Source: a bacterium (GTDB lineage: Bacteria; JADJOY01). From it: a stretch of DNA of 64,000 bases. The stretch is taken from the NCBI GenBank assembly GCA_046331705.1, contig JAXLQJ010000005.1:124001-188000 (forward strand), written 5' to 3'. The stretch's first letter is position 1. Each line of letters begins with the position of its first letter. Below the pieces are notes generated by a model. That model was given only the letters and a program-made list of their open reading frames with translations, did no database searches and had not been told where the DNA came from. A program made the position numbers and the translations under genes. Positions 7,206 to 18,151 of this stretch are shown piece by piece.

Positions 7206-8081
7206 ATGAAGAGTTACCACGACATCGTCGGGGACGGCGGCGCCAACGTCCTGGGCCAAGTCCAAGCGATCCGCGCGCGGCGCGCGCGCAACCTGAGCGA
7301 GATCCGCAACCTGATCGCGGTGGCGTCGGGCAAGGGGGGCGTCGGCAAGAGCACGCTCGCGACCCAGCTCGCCGCGGGCCTTCACGACGCCGGTCGCCGC
7401 GTCGCGATCCTCGACGCGGATCTCAACGGCCCCAGCCAGGCTCGGCTCACGGGGCTCGGTCTCAAACCGCTGGTGCCGACGAGCGACGGTCGCGTCGCGC
7501 TTCCCCGAACCGCGCACGGCATCGGCGTGGTCTCGATCGGCGCACTGGTGCCCGAAGGCGAAGAGCTGCGCTTCGACACCGTCGCCAGCGGCGAGATGCA
7601 CACCTGGCGCGCCACGCGCGAGTTCACCTTGCTCGAGGAGCTGCTCGGCACGGTCGCGTGGGGTCCGCTCGACGACCTCGTGATCGACCTACCGCCGGGC
7701 GCGGAGCGCGCCGTCCAGTTCGCGGAGTTCCTCGGGGCGGCGGTGCGATTCGTCGTGATCACGATCCCCAGCTCGCTGGCACGCGGCGTGGTGGCGCGCT
7801 CGCTCGCGGCGCTCGCGAAGACTCCCAACCGCGTGCTCGGATACGTCGAGAACATGAGCGGCTATCACTGCATCGGATGCGCCAGCACCCAGCCGCTGTT
7901 CCCGAGCGAGCAACCGCGCGAGCTCGCGGCGCGGTTCCTGGGAAGCGTTCCGTTCGACCCCGCGCTGGCGGCGCGCTGCGATCGCGGCGAGTCGGTCTTC
8001 GCGCCGCCCACGCTGCCGTCCGCCGCCGCCGTCGCCGCGATCGTGGAACGCGTGATCGCCGCGCTCGAGGAGGTCCCGTGA
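7206..8081 (+). CDS. mrp: Mrp/ApbC/NBP35 family P-loop ATPase (Fe-S cluster carrier)
   Basis: ASGKGGVGKST deviant Walker A, DADLNGPS, DLPPG, ENMSGYHCIGC cluster-binding CxxC. Confidence 0.85.
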   Translation: MKSYHDIVGDGGANVLGQVQAIRARRARNLSEIRNLIAVASGKGGVGKSTLATQLAAGLHDAGRRVAILDADLNGPSQARLTGLGLKPLVPTSDGRVALPRTAHGIGVVSIGALVPEGEELRFDTVASGEMHTWRATREFTLLEELLGTVAWGPLDDLVIDLPPGAERAVQFAEFLGAAVRFVVITIPSSLARGVVARSLAALAKTPNRVLGYVENMSGYHCIGCASTQPLFPSEQPRELAARFLGSVPFDPALAARCDRGESVFAPPTLPSAAAVAAIVERVIAALEEVP

Positions 8082-8521
8082 AGTTCCTCTGCGTCCCCTG
8101 CGATTCCCCGATGCGCCTCGTCGAGACCAAGCCGCCGGATCGCGGCTCGCTCACGCTGCTCTACGCGTGCCCGGCCTGCGGTTACGAGATGGCGATGCTG
8201 ACGAACCCCTTCGAGACCCAGGTGGTGGGCTCGCTCGGTGTGAACGTCGAGCCGGGTGGCGCGCCCAGCGCGCCGACGGCGGGCGCCTCGAAGTGCCCCA
8301 TCGCGGGCATCGCGCGCGGCGAAGCCGAGCCGCTCCCGACCGCGTCGACGGACGCGGGCCCGCTCACGTGGACCGCCGAGGCGGAACGTCGGCTCGACAA
8401 CGTGCCGTCGTTCGCGCGGCCCATGGCGCGCACCGGCGTCGAACGTTTCGCACGCGAGCGCGGCTACGCCCGCATCGACGAGCGGGTCATGGACGAGGCC
8501 AAGGACTTCTTCGGGATGTGA
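8078..8521 (+). CDS. Small Zn-ribbon protein with C-terminal PCP_red-like domain
   Basis: GTGA overlap with mrp and GGAGG RBS; MKFLCVPC..CPAC; SKCP; WTAEAERRLDNVPSFARPMARTGVERFARERGYARIDERVMDEAK. Confidence 0.8.
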   Translation: MKFLCVPCDSPMRLVETKPPDRGSLTLLYACPACGYEMAMLTNPFETQVVGSLGVNVEPGGAPSAPTAGASKCPIAGIARGEAEPLPTASTDAGPLTWTAEAERRLDNVPSFARPMARTGVERFARERGYARIDERVMDEAKDFFGM

Positions 8522-8573
8522 CGGCGCGCGCGCACGCCTCACGCTCACCTCGACCGGCCCGAGCGACGTCGCC

Positions 8574-9914
8574 ATGAATCCCGCGCTTCCGGCGGAACCG
8601 ACGGCGGTATTCGATCGCCCCTACGTCGTCTCGTGGAACCTCACGTATCGGTGCAATCTGGCGTGCGAGCACTGCTACCTCGACGCCGGCCCGAATCCGC
8701 TGGTCGCCAGCGACGCCTTCGCGGACCGGAGCGAGCTCGGCACGGAGGAATGTTTCGCGGTCGCGGACCAGATCGCGCAGCTCGCGCCCGAGTGCGTGAC
8801 GATCCTGACCGGCGGCGAACCGCTGTTGCGCCGCGACATCCTGGCGATCGTCGCCCACGCCGCGAGCCGCGGGCTGTGGGTCGTGGTCGGCACGAACGGT
8901 GTGCGGATCACCGAGAACGTCGCCTCGCAGCTGGCGGCAAACGGCGCACGCGGCGTGGCGCTCTCGCTCGATGCCGTCGACGGCGCGGCGCACGACGCCT
9001 TTCGCAACGTGCGCGGCGCCTTCGCCAACACCGTCGAAGCGGCGCACGTCCTCGCCCGTGTGGGCATGCCGTTCTTGATCCAGACGACCGTCGCGCGTCA
9101 CAACGTGGACGACCTCGAGGCCATCGCGGAGCTGGCGCACGAGCGCCTCGGAGCCAAGGTCTGGAACCTCTACTTCCTGGTCCCCAGCGGTCGCGGCGAG
9201 TACGTCTCCGACCTCGACCCCGCGACCTACGACGGCGTCCTCGAGCGCCTCTACCACCTGCAACGGCGCTTCTCCGGGCGCATGCTGGTGAACGCCAAGT
9301 GCGCGCCCCACCACGTGCGGACGGCGCTCGCGCACGATCCCGACGCGCCCTTGCCGCGGACCTACGCCGGCGGCGCCGGCGGTTGCCCGGCCGGGACCCA
9401 CTACCTGGGGATCCGGCCGAACGGCGACGTCACGCCGTGCCCCTACCTGCCAGTCTTCGCGGGGAACTTGCGCAGCGATTCGCTCGGCGAGATCTGGACC
9501 GACTCGGAGCTCTTCCAGCGCATCCGCAAGCGCGACTCCTTGGGCGGACGGTGCGGCGACTGCGAGCTCAAGTCCGCCTGCGGCGGATGCCGCGCGCGCG
9601 CGCACGGCACGAGCGGCGACTACATGGCGGCCGATCCGCTGTGCGCCCACGAGGTCGGGCGCTTCAAGGACCTGCCCTCGATCGCGCGCCGCGACGAAGG
9701 CTACGGCGAGCGAGCCGCACCGGGGCTGCGCTGGGACCCCGCGGCGCTGGAGCGAATGAAGCAGATCCCGGCCTTCGTGCGCGGCATGGTGACGCGCACG
9801 GTCGAAGCCCACTGCCGCGAGCGCGGGATCACGGTGATCGACGAGCGCACGCTCGCGGAAATCCGCTCGCGAATGCCAGCGGCCCGGGTATTCGGCAAGC
9901 CCGAGCGGTTGTGA
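8574..9914 (+). CDS. Radical SAM/SPASM protein (AhbD/NirJ-like) with C-terminal PCP_red-like domain
   Basis: SWNLTYRCNLACEHCY, LTGGEPL, SPASM cysteines (GCPAG, PCPY, CGDC..CGGCRARA, DPLC); tail WDPAALERMKQIPAFVRGMV..VEAHCRERGITVID. Confidence 0.85.
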   Translation: MNPALPAEPTAVFDRPYVVSWNLTYRCNLACEHCYLDAGPNPLVASDAFADRSELGTEECFAVADQIAQLAPECVTILTGGEPLLRRDILAIVAHAASRGLWVVVGTNGVRITENVASQLAANGARGVALSLDAVDGAAHDAFRNVRGAFANTVEAAHVLARVGMPFLIQTTVARHNVDDLEAIAELAHERLGAKVWNLYFLVPSGRGEYVSDLDPATYDGVLERLYHLQRRFSGRMLVNAKCAPHHVRTALAHDPDAPLPRTYAGGAGGCPAGTHYLGIRPNGDVTPCPYLPVFAGNLRSDSLGEIWTDSELFQRIRKRDSLGGRCGDCELKSACGGCRARAHGTSGDYMAADPLCAHEVGRFKDLPSIARRDEGYGERAAPGLRWDPAALERMKQIPAFVRGMVTRTVEAHCRERGITVIDERTLAEIRSRMPAARVFGKPERL

Positions 9915-9968: not shown

Positions 9969-10772
9969 TCAGCCCCAGAACTCGTCGCCGCCTTCACCGG
10001 GCTTCGGTGCTTGCGCCGCGAGCCACTGGTCGAACTCCGCCTGCGTGTGGATCGTGACGAAACCACGCATGCGGTAATGACCGAGACCGCAGAGCTGCGC
10101 GCAACCGATCTCGTAGGTGAACTTCGGATCGCCCGTTCGAGCGCGCATCTCCTCGGTCGTCACCGTCGGCTCGAACCACAGCGGCGACTCGATTCCGGGG
10201 ATGGCATCCTGCTTCACCCGCATCTCCCACAGAGCGAAGCTGTGGATCACGTCCTTGCTGCTGAGACGCACGATGACCGGTTTGTGGGCCGGCAGATGAA
10301 GCTGATTCACGGTCGTGATGTCGTCCTTGCCGTGCGCGTCCTCGGGATCGAGACCCAGCGGGTTCGTCTGCGCGTCGACGAAGCGCGGGTCCGTGTGACC
10401 GAAGACACCGTCCGCGCCGGGGTAGTGGAAGTTCCAGGCGAATTGCTCCGCGACCACCCGCACCACGACCGCGTCCTTCTCGGCCGGGAACTTGTCGACG
10501 CGAACCGACCAGAGCGGGATCGAGAAGCCCACCAAGATCACGGCCTCGACCAACGCCACCGCCACTTCCAGGTAGGTGTTCTTGTGTCCCGTGACGCCGA
10601 CGTAGTCCGCTTTCGGGTTCGCGCTCGCTCGGAAGCGGATGAGCGTGTAGACGAAGAACGCGCCCCAGCCCACGAACAGCAAGGCCATCAAGACGTGCAC
10701 GTAGCCGATCACCTGATCGACCTTGGCCCCGTGCTCGGACGCAAGCTGCGGGAGAGACAACCACTCGTGCAT
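9969..10772 (-). CDS. coxB: Cytochrome c oxidase subunit II (CuA), no fused cytochrome c domain
   Basis: Two TM helices, EQFAWNFHYPG, DVIHSF, CAQLCGLGHYRM CuA ligands. Confidence 0.93.
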   Translation of the reverse strand: MHEWLSLPQLASEHGAKVDQVIGYVHVLMALLFVGWGAFFVYTLIRFRASANPKADYVGVTGHKNTYLEVAVALVEAVILVGFSIPLWSVRVDKFPAEKDAVVVRVVAEQFAWNFHYPGADGVFGHTDPRFVDAQTNPLGLDPEDAHGKDDITTVNQLHLPAHKPVIVRLSSKDVIHSFALWEMRVKQDAIPGIESPLWFEPTVTTEEMRARTGDPKFTYEIGCAQLCGLGHYRMRGFVTIHTQAEFDQWLAAQAPKPGEGGDEFWG

Positions 10773-10789: not shown

Positions 10790-11059
10790 TTAACTCGGGT
10801 TCTCACACGCGGCCGGCGCGGCTGCGAGCGCGGCGGCTCCGCTGAATCGTCGGGCGCGCCTCGACAAGTAGACGAAGAACGTGAGGAAGCCGATCCACAT
10901 CGACGCCACCACGGCGATCAGCAGCCACGCCCCGAGCCGCGCGCCGTCGATCATCGGTCCCGTGGCCTCGCCGTAGCAGGCGGGGCAGGCCCAGACGGCG
11001 GAGCTCGAGAGCGTCAGCGCTGCCGTCGCGAGCAGCGCGACGAGCGGGACTCTCGCCAT
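10790..11059 (-). CDS. Small exported/membrane protein with CxxC immediately after the signal peptide
   Basis: MARVPLVALL..AVWA-CPACYG.. followed by one TM helix; lies within the cox operon. Confidence 0.65.
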   Translation of the reverse strand: MARVPLVALLATAALTLSSSAVWACPACYGEATGPMIDGARLGAWLLIAVVASMWIGFLTFFVYLSRRARRFSGAAALAAAPAACENPS

Positions 11060-11064
11060 CGCGC

Positions 11065-11268
11065 TCACGACTCGAGGCCCCGCAGCTTGCGCAGGAACCA
11101 GCCGCCGTAGCTGAGCAACGCCACCCCGGCTGCCGTCGACGCGGCACCCATCAGCACCATTCCCACGTCGCTCGTGCTGCGCCCCTCGGCGATTCCCCAC
11201 GCCCCGAAACCGAACACCGTGAGCGTCGCCACCAGGATGAACACGACGTGAAAGCCCTTGAGATTCAC
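11065..11268 (-). CDS. Small two-helix membrane protein of the cox operon
   Basis: MNLKGFHVVFI..; two hydrophobic helices; tight operon spacing. Confidence 0.7.
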   Translation of the reverse strand: MNLKGFHVVFILVATLTVFGFGAWGIAEGRSTSDVGMVLMGAASTAAGVALLSYGGWFLRKLRGLES

Positions 11269-11276
11269 GGTGGTGC

Positions 11277-11657
11277 TCAGTGGCCCGCGTGGGCGCCGTG
11301 CTCGCCAGCGGGCTGCGCGACCTTGTCGGGATGAGTCAGCTTGCCGACGTGGTCCACGATGGAAGTCGCGGTGGGCGTCAGCAACAGCACGAAGAAGAAG
11401 CCGACCGTCAATCCCAGCACCGCGAAGATCGTCTTGCGTTCCGAGAGCAGGTGCATGAAGTACGCGGCCACCAACGAGCCCTTGATGGTGGCGATGACCA
11501 GCGCGAGCGCGATCGCCTCGCGCTTCGGCAGATCGAGCTCCGCGACGACCACCGTCACCACGGTCAAGGCCAGCAGGCTACCGAAGACGATCAACGCCGA
11601 ACGTACGTGCTTGTCGAGGTCCGCGGCGTGGTGGTCCACAGCGTGATTCGCGCTCAT
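11277..11657 (-). CDS. coxD: Cytochrome c oxidase subunit IV (CtaF/CoxD family)
   Basis: ALVIATIKGSLVAAYFMHL signature; GGAGG RBS upstream of the ATG at 11657. Confidence 0.85.
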   Translation of the reverse strand: MSANHAVDHHAADLDKHVRSALIVFGSLLALTVVTVVVAELDLPKREAIALALVIATIKGSLVAAYFMHLLSERKTIFAVLGLTVGFFFVLLLTPTATSIVDHVGKLTHPDKVAQPAGEHGAHAGH

Positions 11658-11673
11658 CTCGCCTCCGCCACCG

Positions 11674-12264
11674 TCACAGCAGGTAGAGAACCGGAAAGAG
11701 GAAGATCCAGACCAGATCCACCAGGTGCCAGAACAGGCCGGCATTTTCCACACGATTCGTGAACCATTGCGGATTGGTCTCGAAGAGCCTCGAGCCCGGG
11801 CCCAGCAGATACGCGTTGACCGCCATCCCGCCGATCACGTGCAAACCGTGCAAACCGGTGAGCGTGAAGTAGATCGCCAGGAACGTGTTGGTTCGCGGGA
11901 AGAGACCGTGATGGAACTTGGTCGTGTACTCGAAGTACTTGATGACCAGGAAGATGCAGCCGCAGAGGATCGTGATCCCCATCCATTGGCGGAACTTCCC
12001 GAGGTCGCGTCGCACCAGCGACGCCCAAGCGAGCACCACGGTGATGCTGGAGCTGATCAGCACCAGGGTGTTGGTGAACGCCATCTTGATGTTCAGGATG
12101 GTGCGTCCAGCCGGCCACTCGGAGGCGCCGACGCGCAGCATGATGTAGGCGGCGAAAAGGCCGCCGAAGAGCATCACCTCCGACGCCAGGAAGAGCCAGA
12201 TGCCGATCTTCCCATTCGTCAGCCCGGTATCCGGGCGGGGGTCGACGGTGTACGGGATCTCCAT
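11674..12264 (-). CDS. coxC: Cytochrome c oxidase subunit III
   Basis: WLFLASEVMLFGGLF, LTGLHGLHV, GLFWHLVDLVWIFLFPVLYL. Confidence 0.93.
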   Translation of the reverse strand: MEIPYTVDPRPDTGLTNGKIGIWLFLASEVMLFGGLFAAYIMLRVGASEWPAGRTILNIKMAFTNTLVLISSSITVVLAWASLVRRDLGKFRQWMGITILCGCIFLVIKYFEYTTKFHHGLFPRTNTFLAIYFTLTGLHGLHVIGGMAVNAYLLGPGSRLFETNPQWFTNRVENAGLFWHLVDLVWIFLFPVLYLL

Positions 12265-12270
12265 GCTCGC

Positions 12271-14043
12271 TCACCCCCTGGCCGGATCGAATTGCGGGAA
12301 GAAATCGGTCGCGTGCCCCGGCGCGCTGTACTCGTAAGGCCCGCGATGCGCCTCGGGGATGGTGACGAAGTTGCCGTGCGGCGGTGGCGACGGCGCCGCC
12401 CACTCGAGCGTGGTCGCATCCCACGGATTGTCGGAAACCTTCTCGCCGCCGCGAATGCTCGTGAATAGATTGATCATGAACGGGATCTGCGAGACCGCCA
12501 GACCCCACGCCGAGAAGGACATCACCTTGTTCAGGTACAGGTAGTGCGCGACGTGTGCGTAGGTCTCGCCGCCGTCGGCCATGCGGCGTGACATCCCGGC
12601 GAGGCCTTGGATGAACATCGGGAAGAAGATTCCGTTCATGAACACGAACGACGGCCAGAAGTGCAGCTTGCCGAGGGACTCGCTCATGCGACGTCCGGTC
12701 GCCTTCGGAAACCAGTAATAGACGCCCGCGAACAGCGCGAAGATCGTTCCCGGCGCGACCACGTAGTGGAAGTGCCCGATCACGTAGAGCGTGTCGTGCA
12801 GATGGATGTCGGGAAACGACAGCCCGAGCGGCAGTCCCGTGAGCCCGCCGATGCCGAACATCGGCAAGAAAGCCAACGCGAAGAGCATTGGTGTGGTGAA
12901 TCGAATCGAGCCGCCCCACAACGAGACGAAGAACGCGGTGAGGACGATCACCGAAGGGATCGAGATGATCATCGTCGTGGTCTGGAAGAACGCGGCCATC
13001 ACGCTGCCCATGCCGGTGATGAACATGTGATGCGCCCACACCACGAACGACATGAAGCCCAGGAACACCACCGCGTAGACCATCGCGCGATAGCCCCAGA
13101 GCGGTTTGCGCGTGTTGTTCGCGACCACCTCGGCCACGATGCCCATGGCCGGCAGGATGAGAACGTAGACCTCCGGATGCGCGAGGAACCAGAACAGGTG
13201 CTGCCAGAGCAGCGGGCTACCGCCACCGCTGACGTTCAGCATCTTGCCGCTCACGACCAGACCGCTCGGCAGGAAGAAGCTGGTGCCCGCCACGCGATCC
13301 ATGAGCTGCAGGATGCCGGCGGCCTCGAGCGGCGGGAACGCGAGCAGCAACAGAAACGCGGTCACGAGCTGCGCCCACACGAAGAACGGCAATCGCATGA
13401 ACGTGAGCCCCTTGGTGCGGAGCTGGATCGTGGTGACGATGAAGTTGATGGAGCCGAGCAGTGACGAGGTGATCAGGAAGATCATCCCCACGAGCCACGT
13501 GGTCTGGCCGGGCGAGATGTCGGACAACGGCGGATACGACGTCCACCCCGATTGCGCGGCGCCGCCGGGCAGGAAGAAGCTCGCCAACATGACGACGCCG
13601 CCCATGGCATAGACCCAGTAGCTCGCCATGTTGATGCGCGGGAAGGCCATGTCGGGCGCGCCGATCTGCAGTGGCAGCACGAAATTCCCGAAGGCGCCCA
13701 CGCCGAGCGGCACGACCCCCAGGAACACCATGATCGTGCCGTGCATGGCGCCGAGCTGATTGTAGAAGTCGGGCGCCATCGCGCCGCCCGGCATCACCGC
13801 GTCGCTGAAGAGCTTGCCGAGGCCGAAGGGGAGCGGCTTGCCCGGGAAGGCGAGCTGCCACCGCATCAGCATCATCAAGCAGAAACCGAAGAACAGGAAC
13901 GCGAGCGCCGTGAGCCCGTATTGAATGCCGATGACCTTGTGATCGGTCGAGAACACGTACTTCCGCCAGAACCCGAGCTCGTGATGCTCGGGATGGCCAT
14001 GGCCTCCGCCGTGACTCGAATGGTGCTCATGCGACGAGCTCAT
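12271..14043 (-). CDS. coxA: Heme-copper oxidase subunit I, A1-type
   Basis: STDHKVIG, MHGTIM, GAPDMAFPR, FWFLAHPEVY, WAHHMF, HDT..GHFHYV, GMSRR; His-rich N-terminus. Confidence 0.96.
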   Translation of the reverse strand: MSSSHEHHSSHGGGHGHPEHHELGFWRKYVFSTDHKVIGIQYGLTALAFLFFGFCLMMLMRWQLAFPGKPLPFGLGKLFSDAVMPGGAMAPDFYNQLGAMHGTIMVFLGVVPLGVGAFGNFVLPLQIGAPDMAFPRINMASYWVYAMGGVVMLASFFLPGGAAQSGWTSYPPLSDISPGQTTWLVGMIFLITSSLLGSINFIVTTIQLRTKGLTFMRLPFFVWAQLVTAFLLLLAFPPLEAAGILQLMDRVAGTSFFLPSGLVVSGKMLNVSGGGSPLLWQHLFWFLAHPEVYVLILPAMGIVAEVVANNTRKPLWGYRAMVYAVVFLGFMSFVVWAHHMFITGMGSVMAAFFQTTTMIISIPSVIVLTAFFVSLWGGSIRFTTPMLFALAFLPMFGIGGLTGLPLGLSFPDIHLHDTLYVIGHFHYVVAPGTIFALFAGVYYWFPKATGRRMSESLGKLHFWPSFVFMNGIFFPMFIQGLAGMSRRMADGGETYAHVAHYLYLNKVMSFSAWGLAVSQIPFMINLFTSIRGGEKVSDNPWDATTLEWAAPSPPPHGNFVTIPEAHRGPYEYSAPGHATDFFPQFDPARG

Positions 14044-14918: not shown

Positions 14919-16127
14919 TCAGGCGTTTTCGTAGGTCAACGACTCGGGCAATCGTGGGTCGCGAATGGGAATCAAGGCCGCGCGGGTCAGGTTGAAACCG
15001 AACACGGCCAGGAACGCGCCGCCCACCGCGACCCACGTCGTGAGATCCAGCGCCGTCGGCGCGAATCCGTGCTCGTGAATGTTCGGCATCACGAGCCAGT
15101 GGAGATCCAGGTAGTGCATCGCCAGCATCCAGATCGCGCCCAGGCGCAGCAGCGCCGGGTTGCGTTTCACGGAGCGGGCCATGATGGCGAAGAACGGGAT
15201 CACGAAATGCCCGATCGCCAGAGCGATGGTCACGGTCTTCCAGGAACCGGCGAGCCGGTGCCGGAACCAGATCGTCTCTTCGGGGATGTTCGCGTACCAG
15301 ATCAGGAAGAACTGCGAGAAGCCGATGTACGTCCAGAAGATCGTGAAGCCGTGGAGCAGCTTGCCGAGATCGTGGAAATGATCGGTGGTGAAGACCCCGG
15401 TCACCAGACCGCTGCGGTGCAAACCGACCGTGACGATCGCGATGAACGCATGCGCCGCGACCACCGCTCCCGCGAAGAAGTAGAGGCCGAAGATGGTCGA
15501 GTACCAATGCGGGTCGAGCGACATGATCCAGTCGATCGAGGCGAACGTGATCGAGAGCGCGAACACGAAGAGGGAGGGCGCGGCGGCCATCTGCAGTCGG
15601 CGCGTGATGTCGTGGTCTCCGGTTGCGTCCTGCCGCCGCGACGCTCGACCGAAGTAGACCGACATCGCGAACCACACCACCACGTAGATCACCAGCCGGA
15701 CGAGGAAGAAGCGCGTGTCGAGGTACGGTGCCTTCGAGTGGAGCGCCGGATCCTTCGCGACCAGGTCCGCGTCCGTCCAGATGAAGAGCTCCGACATCCC
15801 CAGCGCGATCGGCAACACCAGCACCGCGAACGCCGGCAACGTCGCCATGGCGTTCTCGGCGATGCGCCGCACGGCCGTGCTCCAGCCAGCCTTCGAGATG
15901 TAGTGGATCAGGACGAAGAAGAGCGCCCCGAGCGCGATGCTCAGGAAGTACAGGAACGCCACCAGCCAGGAGAAGTAGAACTGCTTGAGGTCTGCGCGAC
16001 CGAGAGCCAACGAACCGATCAGCCCGACGACCAACGCGATCCCGCCCGCCGCGGGCAGTCGCCCCCAGCCATTTCCGGGGGGGATGGAGGCGCGATCCGG
16101 GCGAAGGGAATGTGCGGCGTCGCTCAA
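14919..16127 (-). CDS. actF: Alternative complex III subunit ActF
   Basis: TTG start inferred from AGGAG RBS; FASIDWIMSLDPHWYSTIFG, HDLGKL, WTYIGFSQFFLIWYANIPEET signatures. Confidence 0.88.
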   Translation of the reverse strand: MSDAAHSLRPDRASIPPGNGWGRLPAAGGIALVVGLIGSLALGRADLKQFYFSWLVAFLYFLSIALGALFFVLIHYISKAGWSTAVRRIAENAMATLPAFAVLVLPIALGMSELFIWTDADLVAKDPALHSKAPYLDTRFFLVRLVIYVVVWFAMSVYFGRASRRQDATGDHDITRRLQMAAAPSLFVFALSITFASIDWIMSLDPHWYSTIFGLYFFAGAVVAAHAFIAIVTVGLHRSGLVTGVFTTDHFHDLGKLLHGFTIFWTYIGFSQFFLIWYANIPEETIWFRHRLAGSWKTVTIALAIGHFVIPFFAIMARSVKRNPALLRLGAIWMLAMHYLDLHWLVMPNIHEHGFAPTALDLTTWVAVGGAFLAVFGFNLTRAALIPIRDPRLPESLTYENA

Positions 16128-16170
16128 GGCTCGCGAGCTCCTCTGCGTCCCGAGTTCCGACCGCGGGGCA

Positions 16171-16734
16171 TCACGCCCGCCGCGGCACCAGCTCGACGTG
16201 CTTGGCGCCGATCCCGCGGAGAAAGTCCGGTGTCCGCTGCGGATCGAAGCGCGGGTCCCACGATTCGATCGAGATGAAGAACCCGTCGTCGCTCGCACGC
16301 GCGAACCGCTCCGCGTGAAACAGCGGATGGAAGAGCATGGGCAGTTGATTCAGGCCGAACATGCCGAAGACCGCGGCGAACGCGGCGAACAGCACACCCA
16401 GCTCGAAGACGATGGGAATGAACGCCGGCCAGCTGAAATACGGCTTGCCGCTGTAGACGATGGGATAGTCGACGACGCTCATCCACCACTGCATCAGGAG
16501 CGCGCTGGCGGCGCCGACCAGCCCGAGCGCGAGCACCAGGAACGGCAGCCGTGAGCGCCGGAGCCCCATCGCGCGGTCGAGCCCGTGAATGGGAAACGGC
16601 GTGTGCGCGTCCCATCTCGTGTAACCCGCGTCGCGCACCTGCTCGCAGGCTTCGTAGAGCGCCTGGGGCGAGTCCAGCTCGGCGAGCGCGCCGAAATGCT
16701 CGCCCTCGGGCAGGGACGGCATCAACAAGCCCAT
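16171..16734 (-). CDS. actD: Alternative complex III subunit ActD (DUF3341)
   Basis: DAHTPFPIHGLD, DYPIVYSGKP..SWPAFIPIVFELGVLF signatures. Confidence 0.9.
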   Translation of the reverse strand: MGLLMPSLPEGEHFGALAELDSPQALYEACEQVRDAGYTRWDAHTPFPIHGLDRAMGLRRSRLPFLVLALGLVGAASALLMQWWMSVVDYPIVYSGKPYFSWPAFIPIVFELGVLFAAFAAVFGMFGLNQLPMLFHPLFHAERFARASDDGFFISIESWDPRFDPQRTPDFLRGIGAKHVELVPRRA

Positions 16735-16735
16735 C

Positions 16736-18151
<1,416 letters not shown>

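Follow-up and report, generated by a model that had tools for sequence, protein, structure and literature searches.

How does a haem-copper oxidase of the A family bring protons to its active site once the lysine of its K-channel is gone? The question is raised by a cytochrome oxidase operon in a 64,000-nucleotide stretch of bacterial DNA (GTDB lineage Bacteria; JADJOY01), comprising positions 124,001 to 188,000 of contig JAXLQJ010000005.1 in GenBank assembly GCA_046331705.1; this whole stretch is called the window below. In canonical enzymes, the substrate protons for both reductive steps arrive through the K-channel (PMC7196763). This channel starts at Glu62 of subunit II and is lined by helices that include helix II of that subunit, and mutation of the lysine drastically slows reduction of the oxidised enzyme (PMC6115622). 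The lysine is also treated as part of the definition of A-type oxidases (PMC3084760).

A preliminary description of the window, made from the sequence alone, had noted the missing lysine together with an extra intramembrane glutamate in subunit II, and had proposed either an alternative proton route or different chemistry or ion coupling. The analysis presented here favors the proton route and gives no support to different chemistry. The operon probably encodes a working A-family (A1-like) cytochrome/cupredoxin:O2 oxidoreductase in which K-type proton input has been rebuilt across the interface between subunits I and II, with the carrier moved to subunit II.

Loss of the K-channel lysine in CoxI

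The gene for subunit I and the two helix VIII sites that concern the K-channel are located as follows.

12271..14043, minus strand: coxI, haem-copper oxidase subunit I of the A family with the HPEVY glutamate (A1-like), 590 amino acids; PF00115, 445.8 bits
12952..12963, minus strand: Ser361-Ile-Pro-Ser364 in helix VIII of CoxI, from the translation
12943..12945, minus strand: codon of Val367, which takes the place of the K-channel lysine (K354 in Paracoccus denitrificans, K362 in Rhodobacter sphaeroides, K319 in the bovine enzyme), from the ungapped phmmer alignment and the translation

When CoxI is compared with all solved chains using phmmer, the top matches are the A1-type oxidases of P. 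denitrificans (1ar1_A, E 7e-124) and R. sphaeroides (1m56_A, E 1e-122), aligned over the whole length with the same twelve-helix core. Against the equivalog model TIGR02891 (CtaD_CoxA), CoxI scores 585 bits, under the curated cut-off of 670.75. The helix VIII stretch, encoded by window positions 12975-12910 on the minus strand (TMIISIPSVIVLTAFFVSLWGG), aligns to both solved chains without gaps and places valine at the lysine and serine at the threonine, as the preliminary description had read it. Of the K-channel residues named in PMC3084760 (Lys354, Thr351, Ser291 and Tyr280), the counterparts are Val367, Ser364, Ala304 and Tyr293, so that the tyrosine alone is retained. The exchange at Thr351/Thr359 for Ser364 (codon 12954-12952) is conservative. 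Above Ser364, one helical turn closer to the active site, Ser361 contributes a further hydroxyl.

The remaining catalytic features are intact, again in line with the preliminary description. All eight D-channel residues listed in PMC3084760 are present, namely D131, N138, N120, N200, Y42, S141, the Ser193 equivalent and E291 in the HPEVY motif. The cross-link tyrosine, Tyr293, and His101, 289, 338, 339, 424 and 426 align to the P. denitrificans ligands. In a 43-row CoxI alignment, Tyr293, the six histidines and the Arg486/Arg487 pair are invariant or nearly so.

Two residues of CoxI were considered as compensating residues and set aside. At the position of Glu305, which lies beside the Ser291 position, Glu or Asp is also common in lysine-bearing relatives, including the A2-type paralogue of the same genome. 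Lys267 belongs to a 12-residue insert in the loop between helices V and VI, which lies on the periplasmic side and is common to lysine-bearing neighbours. A separate feature of CoxI is its His-rich N-terminus (residues 1-22; 13978-14043, minus strand; MSSSHEHHSSHGGGHGHPEHHE), predicted to lie on the cytoplasmic side.

Extent and phylogeny of the lysine-less clade

The lysine-less state is neither chance nor sequence error. Among the query and its 120 closest relatives (121 proteins, 75-97% identical), 119 match the helix VIII motif pattern and 2 do not; every one of the 119 has isoleucine, valine or leucine at the lysine position, and none has a lysine there. Several lysine-less A-type groups also appear among 150 representatives obtained by clustering at 50%.

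Phylogenetic relationships were examined in a FastTree tree of 191 rows, which comprised 81 locus and window CoxI sequences, the A2-type paralogue of the source genome (L001) and filtered representatives. The latter had at least 450 amino acids, the CuB histidines and residues at the D124 and K354 columns; fragments were left out. The 55 sequences of the lysine-less kind found in the window group together in a single clade (support 100) on a long stem; the clade nests among A1 and A2 sequences in this tree, which has no B or C outgroup. Its sister pair, P0139 and P0183, is lysine-less too. Further lysine-less groups lie elsewhere in the tree, including fused I+III proteins with a lysine-to-glutamine change, an 'IPF' group and several smaller ones; their separate positions indicate that the lysine has been lost several times.

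Clade loci carry record titles from Vicinamibacteria and other Acidobacteriota, Verrucomicrobiota, Planctomycetota, Ignavibacteriota, Fidelibacterota (Marinimicrobia), Hydrogenedentota and others. The enzyme is widespread among uncultured bacteria from soil, freshwater and the sea that belong to several phyla; some of them apparently have it as the sole terminal oxidase. Annotation labels for it are loose, with 'cbb3-type' used in some sources.

Some members depart further from the canonical pattern. In the deep clade members L046, L048, L063, P0125, P0127 and P0131, the D-channel entrance (Asp124, Asn131, Asn113) is also lost and Glu278 is retained. P0139 has a glutamate directly beside the lysine position in helix VIII (IAELL). 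A search aimed at the coxII gene of this sister lineage found no close relatives of P0139 among the six species genomes that represent the window's GTDB phylum in the collection. The P0169-P0268 group of fused I+III proteins combines glutamine or histidine at the lysine position with an altered Asn113.

A second glutamate in subunit II tracks the lysine loss

The relevant features of subunit II, which has a CuA domain, are these.

9969..10772, minus strand: coxII, CuA subunit II, 267 amino acids, without a haem c domain; TIGR02866, 1e-38, and PF00116
10566..10568, minus strand: codon of Glu69, equivalent to the K-channel entrance glutamate (E78 in P. denitrificans, E101 in R. sphaeroides, E62 in the bovine enzyme); phmmer alignment
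10545..10547, minus strand: codon of Glu76, an extra intramembrane glutamate in the second transmembrane helix (TM2) of CoxII, seven residues past Glu69; phmmer alignment
10095..10097, minus strand: codon of Gln226 in the CuA loop, C-A-Q-L-C against the canonical C-S-E-L-C; alignment

The extra glutamate had been pointed out in the preliminary description within the motif LEVAVALVEAV, and the alignment confirms it: in the LEVAVALVE segment encoded at 10571-10545 (minus strand), E69 falls on the entrance glutamate Glu78, and E76 falls on a proline of subunit II in P. denitrificans, R. sphaeroides and the Thermus thermophilus caa3 oxidase.

To relate the two subunits, coxI and coxII were read jointly in 80 genome loci. 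The clade contributes 50 CoxI sequences including that of the window, and coxII is readable in 42 of these loci; in the other eight (L009, L017, L023, L028, L035, L037, L043 and L049) it lies beyond the end of the fetched piece. Residues at CoxII position 76 are distributed as follows.

Lysine-less clade (n=42): Glu 41, Asp 1
Lysine-bearing genome loci (n=30): Thr 21, Pro 8, Val 1
Lysine-bearing metagenome loci (n=50): Pro, Ala, Phe or Ser
Other lysine-less lineages (n=5; L072, L092, L093, L099, L121): Leu, Met, Pro, Ser, Pro

An acidic residue at this position is therefore specific to the clade and universal in the clade loci read: it is present in 42 of 42, as against 0 of 80 lysine-bearing loci and 0 of 5 other lysine-less loci. 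E76 is nearly invariant in a CoxII alignment with a mean column identity of 35%. It is also better kept within the clade than the entrance glutamate E69, which is found in 35 of the 42 clade loci and in all 30 lysine-bearing genome loci. In six clade loci the operon has been rearranged so that coxII precedes coxI, and the residue is retained there too; planctomycete record titles belong to four of the six. It likewise persists, together with Glu278, in L046, L048 and L063, where the D-channel entrance is lost. The co-variation represents one evolutionary event followed by strict retention, and the retention is itself informative.

Ser361 of helix VIII follows the same division, being present in 50 of 50 clade CoxI sequences, whereas all 30 lysine-bearing relatives have Gly or Ala there. 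A third difference lies in the CuA loop, where position 226 is Gln in 41 of 42 clade loci and Glu in 29 of 30 lysine-bearing loci (Gln in the remaining one). In canonical enzymes, this glutamate helps to coordinate the Mg/Mn ion where subunits I and II meet. The CuA center itself is preserved: the motif CAQLCGLGHYRM is present, and C224, C228, H232 and M235, together with H177, are invariant in 41 rows. The CxxCH motif is absent from the window CoxII and from all 72 genome-locus CoxII sequences read.

Modeled placement of the two glutamates

The CoxI-CoxII complex was predicted from alignments made for this analysis, with three runs and three controls. The ipSAE value is 0.91, against 0.00 for the best control, and its mark, reached by 116 of 157 solved complexes and by 2 of 215 mismatched pairs, is only roughly calibrated for such alignments. 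At least 98% of contacts are shared between the runs, and the pLDDT of the partner is 86. CoxI and CoxII are a textbook pair, so the passing score may reflect memory; it is taken as likeness to solved oxidases, and the placement of residues is the only part of the model used here.

The predicted interface of CoxII comprises residues 65, 69, 72-73, 76-77, 79-80 and 83-85, which form one helical stripe that includes both glutamates. The corresponding residues of CoxI helix VIII are 354-355, 358, 361-362, 365-366, 369 and 372-373. Contact pairs join helix VIII residues 372/375 to TM1 residues 39-43, helix IX residues 393-405 to TM1 residues 25-40, and residue 410 to TM2 residues 84-88. In the model, E69 and E76 both lie on the face of TM2 that touches CoxI; the preliminary description had suggested looking in a structure model for a compensating polar residue of this kind. 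Counting along the helices from these contact anchors would put E76 level with CoxI residues 366-367, the old lysine site, and E69 near the cytoplasmic end.

Proposed proton route and alternative explanations

In the reading favored here, the ionizable carrier of the K-channel would have moved from the helix VIII lysine, now Val, Ile or Leu, to TM2 of subunit II, where the buried E76, found two helical turns above E69, would sit at the height of the former lysine site. Protons may pass from the cytoplasm to E69 and E76 of subunit II, on to Ser364 and Ser361 of helix VIII, and from there to the cross-linked Tyr293 at the haem a3/CuB site. E76 is probably protonated at rest in the membrane and could serve as a mid-channel carrier in place of the lysine. 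The D-channel and Glu291 would stay in use for the remaining chemical protons and for pumped protons; both proton carriage by E76 and pumping by the enzyme are predicted on this basis.

Several observations weigh against this proposal. The charge of a glutamate is opposite to that of a lysine, so any electrostatic role of the lysine cannot be copied. As the lysine-less kind forms a single clade, the contrast of 42/42 with 0/80 does not amount to 122 independent trials, and a Fisher P value overstates it. The five other lysine-less loci have no acid at the position, which means that Glu76 is no general requirement for an oxidase without the lysine. Val367 and Ser364 lie outside the modeled interface list, and no pair between E76 and helix VIII is among the 25 contact pairs printed. 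The literature searched contained no biochemical study of any clade member.

The principal competing explanation is that the K-type path has disappeared and that all chemical and pumped protons enter through the D-channel, E76 having a structural, lipid-facing or assembly role. The D-channel is complete in the window CoxI, the same proposal has been made for the lysine-less oxidases of acidophilic iron oxidisers (10.1101/2020.03.01.968255), and the five other lysine-less loci manage without a glutamate at position 76. This explanation nevertheless seems unlikely, given that E76 is kept in every clade locus read, more strictly than the entrance glutamate, and faces subunit I in the model. Furthermore, L046, L048 and L063 retain E76 after losing the D-channel entrance and would, on this explanation, have no input channel at all.

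A path confined to subunit I, running through Ser361, Ser364 and waters in the style of the B family, with E76 merely tuning the electrostatics, is considerably less probable. The two serines are clade-specific, and in the ba3 oxidase the corresponding helix VIII positions are occupied by hydroxyl residues. Lower in subunit I, however, no new polar residue stands in for the lysine or for Ser291, Val367 and Ala304 being apolar; the path is therefore broken between the N-side and Ser364, and E76 would bridge the break.

The possibility that the chemistry has changed, for instance to NO or H2O2 reduction or to O2 scavenging without energy conservation, so that the K-channel is no longer needed, is the most improbable of all. 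Nothing specific was found in its favor, although the source genome has five other PF00115 genes, including that of an A2-type caa3 oxidase beside a full alternative complex III (ACIII), and this copy could therefore be specialized. Against it, the cross-link tyrosine, the three CuB histidines, Glu278, the D-channel and CuA are all retained. In addition, the clade enzyme is the sole PF00115 match in three of ten other carrier genomes checked (G002, G004 and G006), a count limited by the fact that the completeness of these three genomes is not given. None of the three has a cytochrome bd match, and one of them includes a 4.1-Mb contig. Being the only terminal oxidase found in these genomes points to a main role in respiration and away from a side activity.

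A more far-reaching form of the interface proposal can be put forward only tentatively, and in full it is doubtful. It holds that the clade represents a third K-type input design, in which a two-glutamate relay (E69 and E76) on TM2 feeds Ser364/Ser361 and a neutral or anionic carrier takes the place of the cationic lysine. In members without the D-channel entrance, this relay might be the sole proton input. Such an A-family lineage would have come by an independent path to a one-channel layout like that of the B family, and its H+/e- stoichiometry or O2 affinity would differ.

Two roles have been proposed for the K-channel, and a natural, widespread A1-like oxidase with a hydrophobic lysine site and a carboxylate in the neighbouring subunit offers a ready-made test of them. 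Normal turnover and pumping by this enzyme would mean that the lysine site needs no positive charge.

Relation to known oxidases

The closest well-studied enzymes are the canonical A1-type aa3 oxidases of P. denitrificans (1AR1/1QLE) and R. sphaeroides (1M56), which share with the window enzyme the six histidines, the cross-link tyrosine, Glu278, the D-channel, a CuA subunit II with the entrance glutamate, and subunits III and IV. The window enzyme differs from them in the replacement of Lys354 by Val, Ser291 by Ala and Thr351 by Ser, in having Glu76 for proline in TM2 of subunit II, and in the glutamine that replaces glutamate in the CuA loop. The locus also differs in its gene order (coxI-III-IV-II), in the blue-copper gene upstream and in the sub-threshold TIGR02891 score.

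A-type oxidases without the lysine are not new, as such enzymes from other lineages are in print. Degli Esposti et al. described family A COX1 proteins of acidophilic iron oxidisers and others in which the lysine is replaced by a hydrophobic residue and the COX2 entrance glutamate is lost, and inferred several independent losses (10.1101/2020.03.01.968255, PMC8239418). Loss of the lysine has also been noted in the COX of Ferrigenium straubiae, where its meaning was left open (10.64898/2026.01.22.701106). These enzymes have in common with that of the window their family A membership, a hydrophobic residue at the lysine site and a retained D-channel, and the papers on them leave open what the change does. 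They are described as A2 and as lacking the COX2 entrance glutamate, whereas the window enzyme is A1-like and its clade mostly keeps the entrance glutamate and adds a second one. The 'atypical' oxidase of Melioribacter roseus, as presented in PMC5492636, is an A2-type cc(o/b)o3 enzyme and falls outside the window's clade. No paper on the A1-like lysine-less clade, or on a subunit II glutamate that tracks lysine loss, was found in a search that extended to the literature outside the supplementary sequence lists of Degli Esposti et al. As far as seen, then, the subclade has not been characterized as an ordinary O2 reductase.

Convergence on the subunit II glutamate was sought by scanning metagenomes with an alignment of nine 'IPF'-type lysine-less representatives. 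The scan mostly returned ordinary A-type loci, at identities of up to 46%. Neither the four lysine-less metagenome loci it recovered nor L072 has an acid at +7 from the entrance position. The lack of an acid there in other lysine-less loci indicates that convergence has not occurred among them and that the association rests on one clade.

In the B-family ba3 oxidase of T. thermophilus, which has no lysine, helix VIII carries hydroxyl residues and the channel starts at a glutamate of subunit II. It is the closest functional analogy for a path built from a subunit II glutamate and helix VIII serines. In the channel of this enzyme, Thr, Ser and Tyr residues and S309 are named (PMC3084760, PMC11214002). 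It differs in having neither the D-channel nor Glu278 and in its single-helix subunit II, whereas the window enzyme has the D-channel and Glu291 and falls inside family A in the tree. The caa3 subtype is distinguished by a cytochrome c domain fused to subunit II; the window CoxII has no CxxCH. The gene neighbourhood recalls the ACIII-caa3 clusters of Rhodothermus marinus and Flavobacterium johnsoniae, in which oxidase genes likewise lie downstream of act genes, but only ActC', ActD' and ActF' stand beside the lysine-less oxidase, and ActA, ActB and ActE do not.

Operon organization

On the minus strand, the genes run in the order ActC', ActD', ActF', a blue-copper protein gene, coxI, coxIII, coxIV, two small open reading frames (ORFs) and coxII. 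Within the clade, coxI-III-IV-II is the usual order. The genes other than coxI and coxII are as follows.

14919..18151, minus strand: ActC' (16736-18151), ActD' (16171-16734) and ActF' (within 14919-16298), ACIII membrane subunits; PF03916 and PF11821
14171..14884, minus strand: secreted blue-copper protein of two domains, amicyanin-like and encoded immediately upstream of coxI; type 1 copper domain matching 5fc9_A (3e-5) and amicyanins
11674..12264, minus strand: coxIII, subunit III, 196 amino acids; NCBIfam models of the aa3 subunit III and CyoC types, about 1e-35; comes after coxI in almost every related locus
11277..11753, minus strand: coxIV, small subunit IV, with the true start probably inside the listed ORF; TIGR02229, 39.5 bits (cut-off 37.25), and PF03626
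10790..11268, minus strand: a pair of small overlapping ORFs that separates coxIV from coxII, with 67 amino acids (11065-11268) and up to 136 (10790-11200)

The blue-copper protein is a likely electron donor to CuA. Its ligands H127, C165, H168 and M171 do not vary among the 44 relatives, and a CarboxypepD_reg-like beta-sandwich domain forms its C-terminus. The gene occurs just upstream of coxI in many loci, both in the lysine-less clade and in lysine-bearing neighbours.

ActC', ActD' and ActF' are 55, 45 and 34% identical to ActC, ActD and ActF of the full ACIII encoded on the same contig. Genes beyond 18161 lie on the opposite strand, so ActA, ActB and ActE are absent at this locus. The order ActC'D'F'-cupredoxin-cox recurs in L010, L013 and L014, and two verrucomicrobial loci have ActB-C-D-E-F upstream in place of ActC'D'F'.

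The larger of the two small ORFs (10790-11200, at most 136 amino acids) begins with a signal-like sequence and contains a CPAC motif and a single transmembrane helix. Profile searches gave no family match for either ORF, and tblastn located relatives of them at the same place in many related loci.

Genome context and neighbouring genes

The source genome (G000) comprises 8.17 Mb in 118 contigs and contains six PF00115 genes. A lysine-bearing A2-type caa3 oxidase lies beside complete actABCDEF and sco genes 20-30 kb upstream on the same contig (L091).

Short contigs identical or near-identical to parts of cup, coxI, coxIII/IV and coxII are present in four metatranscriptome runs from three studies. 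They have low depth, with shares of at most 0.17, do not include the Val367 codon, and were not counted for expression or habitat.

Convergent with coxII on the plus strand (7206-9914) are genes for a NUBPL/ParA-type P-loop protein and then a radical SAM-SPASM protein that ends in a PCP_red domain. Genes related to that of the radical SAM protein adjoin the oxidase operon in L010 and L013 and are also found near the lysine-bearing Gemmatimonadota-type loci L071, L073, L074 and L085.

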